Shown here piece by piece: positions 8,447 through 35,473 of a stretch of 64,000 bases of DNA. The notes beneath the pieces are model-generated. The model made no database searches, was not told the origin of the DNA, and saw only the letters and a program-made list of their open reading frames with translations. Positions within the stretch are counted from its first letter, which is position 1, and each line of letters begins with the position of its first letter. The position numbers and the translations under genes are program-made. The DNA lies in NCBI GenBank assembly GCA_964016885.1, contig OZ024743.1:263314001-263378000 (forward strand), written 5' to 3'. This DNA is from Eledone cirrhosa (Eukaryota).

Positions 8447-8844
8447 GTGCAGACCCGGCTGTCCATTACTCAATGTAATAGAAAATTTGTACAGAAAAAT
8501 ATATAAATTTATGATTCAGACTGGACACTATATGTTATAGATGATACATACATACATATATACAAACATATACACATATAACCATGTCCATTACGAGCTG
8601 AGCATCCGTTAAGGTGAAACAATTGTTCTCGGTATGGTGAACTAACTGTTGTGTAACCACTTTTACCTAACTCGTCCCATGGACTGAGTGCTCTACCACT
8701 ACGGATATTACCTTCCAGTGTTCTACCTCTCTCTCTCTCTATATATATATATATTTCCACGAACCAAAGTATCGTCTTCGTGTCTTCCTCCGGTTGCAAC
8801 GTTTTTTTAAATATTCACTTCTGCGTTCACAAATTGACTTTGTT

Positions 8845-8895
8845 AGTTTCAGAAGATCCCGTTAAGAGTGAAAGCAGCGATTCTTTGCTTAAACT
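8845..8895 (+). ncRNA. Type I hammerhead-like motif, CAGAAGA core variant
   Basis: agttt CAGAAGA tccc-gttaa-gagt GAAA gca..tgc TT aaact; stems I and III pair; same family as 29772-29823; followed by (TA)n. Confidence 0.62.
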
Positions 8896-8911
8896 TTAAT
8901 CTGCTATTTTA

Positions 8912-8959
<48 letters not shown>

Positions 8960-25773: not shown

Positions 25774-25812
25774 TTTTCTGATGAAAGAATAGCTAGCGTC
25801 GAAACGTTAAGA
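25774..25812 (+). ncRNA. Minimal type I hammerhead, decayed stem II
   Basis: tttt CTGATGA...GAAACGTT aaga; flanks shared with the 30104 copy. Confidence 0.55.
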
Positions 25813-25834
25813 CTCTTTTCCTACTATGTCAAGC

Positions 25835-29081: not shown

Positions 29082-29115
29082 TTCCGGATGAACGACTTTC
29101 GTTCGGAACGTAGAA
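29082..29115 (+). ncRNA. Degenerate hammerhead-like motif
   Basis: ttc CGGATGA acga-ctt-tcgt tc GGAAC GTA gaa; two core substitutions; (TA)n ~85 bp downstream. Confidence 0.4.
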
Positions 29116-29425: not shown

Positions 29426-29564
29426 CTTTGTATAGTAATAATAATAAATAGTAATAATAATAAATGTCAAGACTAAAATCCGAAGAGGGATCGATAAGGA
29501 TAATATATATATAAATATATATAAAACCCGTAGAGCAAATATTTATTGAAATAACAGATTAAAG

Positions 29565-29745
29565 TTTAAGCAAAGAATCGCTGCTTTCACCCTTAATTTT
29601 AAGCAAAGAATCGCTGCTTTCACCCTTAATTTTAAGCAAAGAATCGCTGCTTTCACGCTTAATTTTAAGCAAAGAATCGCTGCTTTCACCCTTAATTTTA
29701 AGCAAAGAATCGCTGCTTTCACCCTTAATTTTAAGCAAAGAATCG
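29565..29745. repeat. 33-bp tandem array (~5.5 units)
   Basis: ttttaagcaaagaatcgctgctttcacccttaa; aagcaaag starts at 29568, 29601, 29634, 29667, 29700, 29733. Confidence 0.95.
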
Positions 29746-29771
29746 CATAACCGGATCTTCTGAAAATTCTG

Positions 29772-29823
29772 AGTTTTCAGAAGATCCCGTTAAGGGTGAA
29801 AGCAGCGATTCTTTGCTTAAACT
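29772..29823 (+). ncRNA. Type I hammerhead-like motif, CAGAAGA core variant
   Basis: agtttt CAGAAGA t-ccc-gttaa-ggg-t GAAA gca..tgc TT aaact. Confidence 0.62.
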
Positions 29824-30103
29824 TTAATCTGTTATTTCAATAAATATTTGCTCTACGGGTTTTATATATATTTATATATATATTATCCTTATCGATCCCT
29901 CTTCGGATTTTAGTATATATATATATATATATATGTAAAATGTAAATATCTCTTATATATATATATATATATCATACACAAAACGCCAGCACAAATATTT
30001 TTGCAAGAGATGTCAACATGAATGGACCTGTTGTTTTTATCTAAAAACATTTTTTCCAATTCCATCCCGCTCGTCCCCTCAATCAATCTTATTTCTCATT
30101 CTT

Positions 30104-30139
30104 TCTTCTGATGAAGGACTAACGTCCGAAACGTTAAGA
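30104..30139 (+). ncRNA. Canonical minimal type I hammerhead ribozyme (Penelope type)
   Basis: tctt CTGATGA a ggac-taac-gtcc GAAAC GTT aaga; palindromic stem III (AACGTT) as in dimeric PLE hammerheads. Confidence 0.8.
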
Positions 30140-30223
30140 CCCTCTTCCTGCTATATCAAGCGTTAACCTAATATATCCCTTCCATATACTGTACCGATTG
30201 TGTTGTTATTTCTGTATACCTTT

Positions 30224-31065: not shown

Positions 31066-31070
<5 letters not shown>

Positions 31071-31272
31071 AACCAGTAAGACCCCGACAGCTGAGCTCAA
31101 GCCGTTTCGACGGCTAATTCTGGACTGATTTTTAGTCCAGAATTAGCCGTCGAAACGGCTTGAGCTCAGCTGTCGGGGTCTTACTGGTTCCTATTACCCA
31201 CTCTACTACCTCAAGTATTGAGTACTTTGGTGCGTTATGGTCCACCTGGTTCCTTACCACATTTCCTTCGTT
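31066..31272 (+). mobile_element. Small fold-back insertion in (TA)n carrying the 3' half of a hammerhead
   Basis: Perfect ~60-bp-arm hairpin at 31066-31194; right arm GAAAC ggct..agct GTC gggg; (TA)n on both sides. Confidence 0.65.
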
Positions 31273-31871
31273 ATATATATATATATATATATGGGAGGAG
31301 GTTATAGTTCACTTGAAGCATTGTGTAATGAGGTATAAACGTTAGAATATGTGTAATAAGGCCAAGACAATGCAGATATGGACATAGAAAAAAGAATGCA
31401 ATAGTGAGAGATATTGATGAGAATTCGTCTTTCACCTTGAATTTATTTAAATGTCCTTAATTTTCGAGATAATATCTCTTCTTCGGAGGGAAGTAAAAGT
31501 CTCAGACCAGCGTCTAAATTTCCAATGAAGCCATGCTGACCGGAAATAGTATAGAGTTCTAACTTTAATATCAAAGAATTAAAATTAGGTGGGTAAAGAG
31601 TAGTCTCCCTTTAAGAGGGGTTTGTTTATGTTTTTGTTGTGTTTTTTTAAATTTTATATGCGTGCCTGTATATGTGTGTGGGAGAAAGCATGAAGGTGTA
31701 GGTATGTGGGTGTGTGTGTGTGAGTGTGGGAAGATAGGTCTAATCGTAAAAGTGGGGGGTAGGTGTTATCTGGTGTTAGAACTGGTTTTGTGTGTGTATG
31801 TGTGAGAGAGAATAAGTGGAGGTGTGCGCGTACGTGTGTGTGGGGTGTGTAAAGTGGGGCTAGAGGCCCTA

Positions 31872-33158
31872 TCAGGTTATAAATTGGGTGTTGAGCTCTA
31901 GTCTATTATTGATTGGTGGATGTGTTCTATCTATAATGAGTGCTTCCTTGATTCTAAGATTGCCGAGGTTTCTTTCCTTAGTTTCTATCCTAACTGTTAT
32001 GTTTTTATCAGTGTTTTTGCATTTAACTAGGTGTTTCTTAAATGAGGAAGCGTTAGTATTGAGGTGTTCTTTTATTCTTATGTGGAGTGGTCTGGTGGTG
32101 CTACCTACGTAGAAGTTGTTGCATTTGTCACACTCTAGTCTGTAAACTACGTAAGCCTGGTGGCATATGTCTGTGTCGTTGATGGGGCAGTTGGCTAGTC
32201 TGCAGCAGTTGTCATGTCTGGTGGAGTGTCTCTTAGCTAGCCGTCCACGCAAAGAAGGACCCGAACGGGCCAGTTGAATATCCAGACCTTCTCGTCTGAT
32301 GGCTCTGCGGATGGCTGTTGTTGTTTCTTCACTGAAGTGTGGGAGCTTCAGGAAGCAAGTGTTAGTGCCTCGGGTGTGGTGTCCTCTGTTCTTTCTGGCA
32401 CGGTTTGTGGTGGATGTCGTGTATCCGTTCAGTTTGAGTACTTCCAGGAAATGTGTGGTGTGTGTGTCTCGGTCTCTGGCGTCGGTGCATTTGTTCTTGA
32501 TACGTGCCAGTTCGTTCTTTATGTATCCGAACTTGGCACCGAGTGGGAGGGCCGATCTGAAATGTACGAACAGGTCCCTGCTGGCGGATTTTTTATAGAA
32601 GCAGGTGTGGATGTTGCCTTCCTCTGTTACCCTGAGTTGGAAGTCCAGCAGGGATAGGGATCCGCGGTCATCGGGGTGTTCTATGCTGAACTTTATACTG
32701 GCGTCCATGCTGGAGAATGTTGTGTATATTTTCTCTGCCTCCTCACGGGATGATGTAAGGATGAGTATGTCATCTACATATCGGGTGAAGAAGGCATGGG
32801 AATGGCAGGTGTTGAGGGCTCGGCATTCTAGCTGGTTCATGTAAGTGATGGCCAGCAGGCCAGAGAGGCTGGATCCCATGGGTAATCCTGTTGTCTGTCT
32901 GTATGTGTGGTGGTGGAAGGTGAAGTACGTGTTGTCTACTGTGAAGGACAAAAGTTAGTGTATGTCCGTCGGGTGGAGGCCGTAGCAGTGGATGTTCTCT
33001 GCGACCACGCAGTCCGTCAATAAATCGACAGCTGGGTGAGCGGGGACTGTAGTGTAGAGGGAGACAACGTCGAAGCTAAAAGCGTATTTATTAAGTTTAA
33101 GTTGTTCTGGCTGGAGTTGGTGTAATCTACGTATAACTTCGTCGGAGCTACTGACATG
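31872..33158 (-). pseudogene. Inverted, shorter copy of the Penelope ORF
   Basis: Mirror of 33594-34880, including the same TAA. Confidence 0.92.
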
Positions 33159-34880
33159 GCCCCTAACCTCTCCAGGACACAACAACTCGCCCTGAAGAAC
33201 CTACGGAATAAGGAACTTATTTACTTACCATCCGACAAAGGTAAAGTGTTCTGCGTCATCTCTCAAGCCACATACAATAACCTAGCCTTCGAACACCTAA
33301 GCGACAGTGAACTGTACACAGTGATCCCGGACATGACCGCAGCCCAAATCGAAAAACAGACCAACTCCATTTGGTTCGATATCTGTAGGAGAAGACAACT
33401 CCCGAATAAAATTAAACTCAACTACACCACTAGAAATAGCAGACTGCCCACTTTCTACCACCTCATCAAGACCCACAAGAATAGCACTAAGACGCATATA
33501 AGACCCATCGTCTCTAGCATAGAAGGACCCCTATACAAAATTTCCTGGCTTCTCTCCCAGGTCCTCAAGCCTCTACTCTCCACCTTCCCCGGACATGTCA
33601 GTAGCTCCGACGAAGTTATACGTAGATTACACCAACTCCAGCCAGAACAACTTAAACTTAATAAATACGCTTTTAGCCTCGACGTTGTCTCCCTCTACAC
33701 TACAGTCCCCGCTCACCCAGCTGTCGATTTATTGACGGACTGCGTGGTCGCAGAGAACATCCACTGCTACGGCCTCCACCCGACGGACATACACTAACTT
33801 TTGTCCTTCACAGTAGACAACACGTACTTCACCTTCCACCACCACACATACAGACAGACAACAGGATTACCCATGGGATCCAGCCTCTCTGGCCTGCTGG
33901 CCATCACTTACATGAACCAGCTAGAATGCCGAGCCCTCAACACCTGCCATTCCCATGCCTTCTTCACCCGATATGTAGATGACATACTCATCCTTACATC
34001 ATCCCGTGAGGAGGCAGAGAAAATATACACAACATTCTCCAGCATGGACGCCAGTATAAAGTTCAGCATAGAACACCCCGATGACCGCGGATCCCTATCC
34101 CTGCTGGACTTCCAACTCAGGGTAACAGAGGAAGGCAACATCCACACCTGCTTCTATAAAAAATCCGCCAGCAGGGACCTGTTCGTACATTTCAGATCGG
34201 CCCTCCCACTCGGTGCCAAGTTCGGATACATAAAGAACGAACTGGCACGTATCAAGAACAAATGCACCGACGCCAGAGACCGAGACACACACACCACACA
34301 TTTCCTGGAAGTACTCAAACTGAACGGATACACGACATCCACCACAAACCGTGCCAGAAAGAACAGAGGACACCACACCCGAGGCACTAACACTTGCTTC
34401 CTGAAGCTCCCACACTTCAGTGAAGAAACAACAACAGCCATCCGCAGAGCCATCAGACGAGAAGGTCTGGATATTCAACTGGCCCGTTCGGGTCCTTCTT
34501 TGCGTGGACGGCTAGCTAAGAGACACTCCACCAGACATGACAACTGCTGCAGACTAGCCAACTGCCCCATCAACGACACAGACATATGCCACCAGGCTTA
34601 CGTAGTTTACAGACTAGAGTGTGACAAATGCAACAACTTCTACGTAGGTAGCACCACCAGACCACTCCACATAAGAATAAAAGAACACCTCAATACTAAC
34701 GCTTCCTCATTTAAGAAACACCTAGTTAAATGCAAAAACACTGATAAAAACATAACAGTTAGGATAGAAACTAAGGAAAGAAACCTCGGCAATCTTAGAA
34801 TCAAGGAAGCACTCATTATAGATAGAACACATCCACCAATCAATAATAGACTAGAGCTCAACACCCAATTTATAACCTGA
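33159..34880 (+). pseudogene. Penelope RT + GIY-YIG ORF, 5'-truncated, in-frame TAA at 33795-33797
   Basis: SDKG, KTHK, IRPIVS, SLDVVSLYT, GLPMGSSLS, RYVDD, LLDF; VVYRLECDKCNNFYVGSTTRPLHIRIKEH. Confidence 0.92.
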
Positions 34881-35261
34881 TAGGGCCTCTAGCCCCACTT
34901 TACACACCCCACACACACGTACGCGCACACCTCCACTTATTCTCTCTCACACATACACACACAAAACCAGTTCTAACACCAGATAACACCTACCCCCCAC
35001 TTTTACGATTAGACCTATCTTCCCACACTCACACACACACACCCACATACCTACACCTTCATGCTTTCTCCCACACACATATACAGGCACGCATATAAAA
35101 TTTAAAAAAACACAACAAAAACATAAACAAACCCCTCTTAAAGGGAGACTACTCTTTACCCACCTAATTTTAATTCTTTGATATTAAAGTTAGAACTCTA
35201 TACTATTTCCGGTCAGCATGGCTTCATTGGAAATTTAGACGCTGGTCTGAGACTTTTACTT

Positions 35262-35298
35262 CCCTCCGAAGAAGAGATATTATCTCGAAAATTAAGGA
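35262..35298 (+). ncRNA. Hammerhead variant (CCGAAGA) in the Penelope 3' region; mirror copy at 31454-31490 (-)
   Basis: cct CCGAAGA a gagat-att-atctc GAAA ATTA agg; palindromic AATT stem III. Confidence 0.7.
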
Positions 35299-35411
35299 CA
35301 TTTAAATAAATTCAAGGTGAAAGACGAATTCTCATCAATATCTCTCACTATTGCATTCTTTTTTCTATGTCCATATCTGCATTGTCTTGGCCTTATTACA
35401 CATATTCTAAC

Positions 35412-35473
<62 letters not shown>

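Follow-up and report, generated by a model that had tools for sequence, protein, structure and literature searches.

Penelope-like elements (PLEs) of the Hydra clade are marked by an RWK-type N-terminal motif, DKT for DKG, a CxCX5C motif, and CxxC and CxH flanking the E and N of GIY-YIG (PMC8557442), and one Hydra element from octopus, Hydra-1_Obim, is given in the supplement of that study (Craig et al. 2021). The Poseidon element of Anolis, PAc, belongs to another clade; in vitro, both strands are cut and extended, two internal start sites are used, and uncleaved RNA is the main template, ribozyme cleavage being dispensable (Frangieh et al. 2024, PMC11167929). The parts of that text considered here contain neither reiteration products nor a cap-derived base. 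Head-to-head inverted copies joined at the 5' end have been described at inverted PLE junctions (Arkhipova et al. 2013, PMC3846280) and for R2, by cDNA snap-back (PMC11371274); both sources explain these palindromes by self-priming, and both also report template switching and slippage at retroelement 5' junctions. Tandem repeats of the pLTR hammerhead region are known from non-LTR retrozymes (bioRxiv 10.64898/2026.07.22.740005), and head-to-tail copies of a structured-RNA stretch are made by telomerase and DRT2 (PMC12039810).

We analyzed a window of 64,000 nucleotides from Eledone cirrhosa (contig OZ024743.1, positions 263,314,001 to 263,378,000 of the forward strand), in which one arm of a fold-back PLE copy carries an array of 33-bp repeats. 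An earlier note on this DNA had proposed telomerase-like repeat synthesis by a Penelope RT, bounded by a hammerhead cleavage site. We conclude that the array is probably an accident of insertion and not a product of telomerase-like synthesis. Template positions are numbered on the antisense (cDNA) strand, with +1 as the first base past the predicted hammerhead cut. The features are listed below in window coordinates.

8754 to 8919, + strand: second, ordinary copy of the same pLTR, without an array (94.6% to copy L181 over 166 nt).
29432 to 29465, + strand: element 3' terminus, the left cDNA start (family position -117), duplicated as 2 x 16 bp and adjoining a SINE-like flank (TRF; parse against natural copy L091).
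29472 to 29596, + strand: left outer arm, antisense of the pLTR and 5' leader, in the direction of cDNA synthesis (125/125 against the right arm).
29565 to 29746, + strand: array of 5.5 x 33 bp, positions -2 to +29 plus an extra T at 29597, 29630, 29663, 29696 and 29729 (TRF, parse, junction search).
29747 to 29766, + strand: one A, then template from +27 towards the apex (parse).
29763 to 29777, no strand: fold-back apex, centre 29770 (sequence).
29772 to 29823, + strand: hammerhead-like type I motif, comprising the stem I 5' strand, the A4 core (29778-29784), a 3-bp stem II (29786-29796), GAAA (29798-29801) and stem III (hand parse).
29790 to 29914, + strand: right outer arm, sense strand of the pLTR and leader, single copy, to family position -92 (arm complementarity, parse).
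Between 29818 and 29819, + strand: predicted hammerhead cut (hand parse).
29914 to 29972, + strand: (TA)n target microsatellite (TRF; the family inserts in (TA)n).

The outer arms of the fold-back (29472-29596 and 29790-29914) were perfectly complementary over 125 of 125 positions, and TRF reported 5.5 copies of the 33-bp unit at 29565-29746 with 98% matches, compared with one copy in the right arm, confirming the reiteration described in the earlier note. One substitution, at 29657 in unit 3, separates the five full units. Each unit restarts at -2, stops at +29, within the 5-nt loop of stem II, and carries one extra T, so that the reported stop in this loop and restart within 3 nt of the cut hold at this locus; an equivalent parse has four untemplated T followed by a restart at +1. 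The junction has zero microhomology and one extra base, with no counterpart of the telomerase alignment region that permits realignment. The earlier note had dismissed a 29-bp unit guided by microhomology, and such a unit is indeed not found in the present array, but it exists elsewhere, as a two-copy duplication at locus L111. Genome-wide, the junction occurs 4 times in 3.0 Gb, always within this array (control 0), and the fifth junction, which bears the unit-3 variant, falls outside these exact matches. The unit lacks the first hammerhead core box and stem I, and it contains 3 nt located 3' of the predicted cut. After the array the template does not simply resume, as had been thought: the sixth unit stops at +14, one A follows, the template picks up at +27 with 12 nt skipped, and close to the apex the resumed left-arm segment differs from the right arm at two positions. 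An origin of this segment from the RNA of a second subfamily was rejected, the diagnostic C being a sporadic variant with 86 matches across subfamilies. We likewise rejected the fold-back as a replicating MITE-like subfamily, as a four-A apex on both arms was found in only 7 fold-backs, with differing centres.

The family is large, with 43,685 genome-wide matches to a 16-nt anchor (control 6; each fold-back counted twice), or about 44,000 arms, in a host whose SINEs appear octopus-like. Insertions are nearly always in (TA)n, and pLTRs occur in tandem (direct) and inverted arrangement. In long copies, the pLTRs enclose an ORF (L181:4337-6472) that measures ~708 aa when counted from its first Met; it has RWR at aa 41, DKT at aa 119, YRDD, and a CxCX5C linker and CxxC..E..N..CxH that together account for aa 570, 604, 665, 683 and 693, and no CX2-5CxxC; a Pfam search of this ORF gave no hit at E 0.01. 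Because the predicted protein carries the stated marks of the Hydra clade, the element is, by motif marks and structure, a Hydra-clade, C-terminal EN+ PLE, in agreement with the earlier identification of a Penelope-like pLTR. It is like the described Hydra elements in its single ORF of ~708 aa, motifs, (TA)n targets, and direct and inverted pLTRs, whereas their hammerheads are canonical by the text description and those of the present family have A4 and no 10.1-11.1 pair; short arrays and a cap-type C, both present here, are absent from the passages of PMC8557442 used for comparison. As in PAc, there are two internal start sites, with cDNA starts in 30 position-ordered arms lying near -117 (10) or near -28 (20).

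The neighboring PLE at 31334-35418 was considered as the cognate element and rejected, as it gave no tblastn hit and belongs to a different family. It has RT and GIY-YIG by Pfam, forms a 1,828-bp perfect inverted repeat with a 429-nt spacer, and has a single in-frame stop, near 33795, that both arms share. A second short fold-back, at 31069-31192 (arms ~58 bp, 7-nt loop) beside a TA microsatellite, probably belongs to another PLE-type family.

The motif at the predicted cut can be drawn as a type I hammerhead, with G12 A13 A14, the A15.1-U16.1 pair and an NUH site (CUU) in place, but its core is non-canonical. The type I core C3 U4 G5 A6 N7 G8 A9 is not matched, position 4 being A in 38 of the 38 sampled copies, and U stands opposite U at 10.1/11.1 in place of the closing G10.1-C11.1 pair. 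Only 171 copies genome-wide have a base other than A at position 4, and because these are distributed over C, G and T, we rejected the idea of a canonical-core subfamily. The drawable helices have 5, 3 and 4 bp, with a stem I pair probability of 0.05, and the hand-drawn fold reaches -6.6 kcal/mol versus an MFE of -11.6 kcal/mol (z-score -0.18, no stability beyond shuffles). Rfam gave no hit in the window, and no hammerhead model matched a natural pLTR of the family at E 10. Given the A4 core, the U/U at 10.1-11.1, the lack of Rfam recognition and a fold no better than shuffles, self-cleavage at the predicted site is doubtful. A U4C hammerhead variant reportedly shows considerably reduced activity in vitro, yet sufficient activity in vivo (PMC3088659); a literature search on the activity of U4A hammerheads found nothing.

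Other hammerhead-like sequences were also seen. The downstream pLTR of the open-ORF copy (L181:7410 region) has a further core change, G at position 6. A minimal hammerhead-like motif at 35262-35300, the 3' end of the neighboring PLE, has C at position 4; thus, U4 is replaced in two PLE families of this window that are unrelated to each other. A dispersed repeat family contributes minimal hammerhead motifs with a canonical core at 30108-30150 and 25778-25820, and a decayed one at 29085-29115.

To locate the cDNA ends of the family, we tallied, for individual template bases, the copies whose sequence departs from the template there following an exact anchor of 16-17 nt. Departures at +47 numbered 3,048 (1,587 C; 1,461 G or T), compared with 1,106 at +46, 731 at +48, 813 at +1 (the cut base) and 782 at +2. 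By eye, 96 of the 100 C matches listed and ~82 of the 100 G/T matches listed at +47 were true ends, whereas ~27 of the 100 matches listed at +1 were true breaks; the estimated ends are ~2,700 for the +47 departure versus ~220 for +1. The share of C was 52% of departures at +47 versus ~13 of the 100 matches listed at +48. Starts of cDNA at the cut were rare (~13 of the 100 matches listed from 504, by eye), and a further 100 matches listed held one break at the cut among ~20 distinct loci. Because cDNAs end at +46, 46 nt upstream of the cut, and seldom start at the cut, the templates appear to have been copied uncut through the motif, which argues against the copying of ribozyme-cleaved RNA that the earlier note had envisaged.

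As judged from these junctions, +46, where stem I begins, is likely the capped first base of the element RNA, and the extra C likely arises when the RT copies the cap. The distance from +46 to the first ATG in L181 is 204 nt, and +46 lies in what we take to be an initiator-like context. Penelope of D. virilis has an internal promoter (PMC2377424), and full-length L1 junctions carry an equivalent extra G (PMC11702581). Our literature search, with most subscription papers outside its reach, found no description of cap-derived bases at PLE junctions. Many fold-back apexes of the family consist of two +46-plus-C ends with one base between them, which suggests that they formed by the joining of two cDNA ends, unlike the self-primed palindromes mentioned above, which are similar in their 5'-joined, head-to-head structure. 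Since family arms end at +46 plus C, the C at 29769 and the G at 29771 in the present apex are likely the cap-derived extra bases of two such ends. The signal at +46 is the firmest new result of this analysis: ~2,700 insertions ending at one base, about half of them with an extra C, map the likely capped RNA start, which bears on what PLE hammerheads do.

For a census of independent duplications, seven probes of 12-13 nt, spanning -39 to +101, were searched genome-wide as tandem pairs, and 80 stretches were fetched and parsed together with those from the first probe search. The curated set comprises 77 events with 64 distinct junctions, the present array included, and these counts are lower bounds because the probes need an exact match. 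Excluded without fetching were 27 of the 64 loci of one probe (25 bridged by a TA microsatellite and 2 non-family); excluded after fetching were 5 TA-bridged loci of the same probe and the TA-bridged L038 and L098. L016 was overlooked. Also left out were L102, L105 and L115, which have a fold-back between units (L115 would give one more +1 case), two non-family rows and one haplotype duplicate. Two junctions, common to ~17 and to 3 loci, were each counted once.

Restarts ranged from -63 to +80, with peaks near -21, +17, -6 and +1, and periods from 15 to 70. Two units were present in 58 events, three in 8, and 4-28 in 11, which corresponds to at least one long array per ~4,000 arms. Microhomology of 1-6 nt was found in 39 of the 77 events, inserted bases in 30, and blunt joining in 8. 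Stops were enriched at +42 to +46 (13 of 64 versus 4.6 expected, p 0.0004) and at -2 to +1 (10 versus 4.2 expected, mostly TTAA-type microhomology pairs). Those in the stem II loop were not enriched (5 of 64 versus 4.0 expected). The last unit was shorter than the first in 26 of the 77 events. As a partial last unit cannot arise by slippage in a finished copy without later deletion, this supports the earlier view that many back-jumps date from insertion. An inversion followed in 47 of the 77 events, as it often does for short arms anyway, and L103, L106, L133, L134 and L163 carry arrays without a fold-back. The retrozyme repeats cited above contain the complete hammerhead and spread as families, whereas the 15-70 bp units here hold a partial motif and the long arrays are one-off. 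A literature search for PLE-derived arrays of 15-70 bp units found none described, most subscription papers lying outside its reach.

The cut site was assessed with the present array left out and against ten nulls. A restart at exactly +1 was possible for 6 of the 63 distinct junctions versus 1.0-3.2 expected (p 0.0004-0.08), and for 3 of the 10 other arrays with at least four units, a cut-off chosen post hoc, versus 0.2-0.7 expected (p 0.0006-0.02). The earlier claim that units restart 0-3 nt from the cut fares differently according to how it is drawn: the exact cut base is mildly enriched, but the window from -2 to +1 is not (6 of 63 versus 3.2-6.0 expected, p 0.08-0.58). Taken over all positions, the +1 peak was not significant (family-wise 0.12-0.42), and the peak at -21 was stronger. 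That AA sites in general attract restarts was unsupported (11 at other AA sites versus 9-13). Independent arrays mostly do not share the boundary, an outcome that the earlier note had named as counting against its model: 7 of the 10 other long arrays restart elsewhere, at -63, -55, -29, -10, -9, +4 and +50, with L163, L164 and L165 restarting far from the motif. Furthermore, all 5 clean +1-compatible junctions match T at 0 to -2, beyond the cut, where a match is expected by chance at 0.31 per blunt-jump junction (p 0.003, or 0.012 with the sixth included), and only one +1 junction without a preceding T was found. These matches count against cleavage because cut RNA would lack those bases; for the model to stand, the cut end would need an oligo(A) tail. 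One array deserves separate mention: L133 (G000:C27, about 5,647,200-5,648,200) has ~21 units of 46 bp, each exactly +1 to +46 and so bounded by the predicted cut and the inferred start of the RNA. It starts mid-unit, without the usual element 3' terminus, its junction has 3-nt microhomology, and variants are shared between its units. We regard it as the best candidate for a concatemer derived from a circle or fragment.

Each of the 10 other arrays with at least four units repeats one junction. In L103, the copies vary by point changes, and a reading of variable stops at a fixed restart was rejected, its junctions being decayed copies of one. Variants common to several units, some as higher-order blocks, were found in 5 of the 8 other arrays examined (L164 scored on its first three units), and only singleton variants in the present array, L040 and L165. 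Successive junctions differ at a few loci (L095, L143, L144 and L152), which are short, with three units. A single repeated junction together with shared variants indicates that the junction was made once and then copied as DNA, and not by the repeated independent jumps previously suggested. This holds for the older arrays, and we infer the same for the present one; because it has no shared variants and its arms are undiverged, a one-step burst is as compatible as later expansion.

On balance, we consider it reasonably likely that the array arose from one backward template slip at insertion, the junction then being multiplied by DNA-templated slippage. The element protein would nick both strands of the (TA)n site, and two cDNAs would be primed on the capped, uncleaved 5' leader, similar to PAc in the use of both strands and of uncleaved RNA. 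Both cDNAs would traverse the hammerhead-like fold, reach +46 at the 5' end of the RNA and acquire a C opposite the cap; joining of their ends would yield the fold-back. A stall of the left cDNA at +29 would have been followed by the addition of a T and by re-annealing to the A-run immediately 3' of stem III (-2), after which synthesis would have reached +14 and jumped ahead to +27, in the manner of the template switching and slippage known at retroelement 5' junctions. The 33-nt period would have expanded to 5.5 copies from junction-bearing DNA, either in second-strand fill-in or in later replication. Ribozyme cleavage would be unnecessary; the cap, the two-strand priming and the responsible polymerase are what we infer from sequence. 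It counts against this explanation that the back-jump requires an untemplated T, as the junction is without microhomology.

A different possibility is that a minority of leader RNAs self-cleave and that the RT jumps repeatedly onto their 3' end or copies a tiny circle. We consider this unlikely, and the telomerase-like reading anchored on cleavage is mostly unsupported, although the small +1 excess (6 of 63 independent junctions and 3 of 10 long arrays) and the L133 unit, a cap-to-cut fragment in an array that starts mid-unit without the usual 3' terminus, speak for it. The four T at the 33-bp junction would exactly fit an oligo(A) tail, with the cut end in the present array carrying at least four added A; a U4C core can retain enough activity in vivo (PMC3088659), and the PAc ribozyme cleaves only with its protein (PMC11167929). 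Conversely, T microhomology reaches 3' of the cut in all 5 clean +1 junctions, the 33-bp unit itself holds 3 nt from there, cDNA ends and starts show no excess at the cut, the +1 excess lacks family-wise significance beside the stronger -21 peak, and A4 is near-universal (38 of 38 sampled; 171 non-A genome-wide). It is accordingly with little confidence that one could regard the degenerate hammerhead as the first 50 nt of a capped RNA that sometimes releases a 46-nt fragment for the Penelope RT to reiterate. We are similarly doubtful that such reiteration, on a fragment whose end was healed and oligo-adenylated or which was circularized, seeded L133, L134, L036 and the present array; if it did, these arrays would document in the genome that the sister enzyme of telomerase has synthesized repeats within limits set by a ribozyme. 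Should the cut-site excess be real, the genome would hold evidence that a PLE RT has synthesized repeats on a template defined by a ribozyme, something of which our literature search found no report.

Telomerase-like addition could also have taken place on uncleaved RNA, with the RT stalling at the same base, realigning and adding the same T, all units being made at once. Young arrays with singleton variants only (the present array, L040 and L165), heavy-tailed unit numbers (58 with two, 8 with three and 11 with 4-28) and frequently partial last units are in line with this, but we think it quite improbable: telomerase and DRT2 have as their function the reiteration of a single fixed template with structural boundaries, whereas here there is no fixed template, boundaries are peculiar to every array, and events are rare (at least 77 in ~44,000 arms). 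Moreover, the same untemplated T at five successive jumps would be unexpected, and loci with differing successive junctions are few and short, with three units. There is also only a slim chance that the array is wholly post-insertion, a product of repair or replication slippage at an unstable 170-bp perfect palindrome without RT. The array does adjoin the apex and disturb its symmetry, the skip of 12 nt and the two mismatches at the apex resemble repair scars, and DNA-level turnover is seen in other arrays; however, arrays are present in five copies without a fold-back (listed above), stops are concentrated at the proposed 5' end of the RNA, and the last unit is frequently partial. An assembly or library artefact is very improbable given the unique junction, the private substitution in one unit, and the many sister loci with like structure and diverged units; four of the 23 listed runs (three short-contig sets and one RAD) had no sequence spanning the array, but these comprise short contigs and RAD reads only and do not amount to a test. 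If it is an insertion accident, the array illustrates how new minisatellites are seeded by a retroelement with 44,000 copies.

Some duplications occur at more than one locus. A 68-bp duplication (+8 to +72) is common to a dispersed subfamily, represented by L096, L119 and ~15 more loci, indicating that a duplicated leader has itself been retrotransposed many times. The same microhomology-guided duplications were also found at unlinked loci, in three sets (L120, L128, L130 and L131; L125 and L127; L137, L143, L149, L150, L156 and L158), and the junctions recurring at unlinked loci run from +45 to +28, from +49 to +27 and from +2 to -21.
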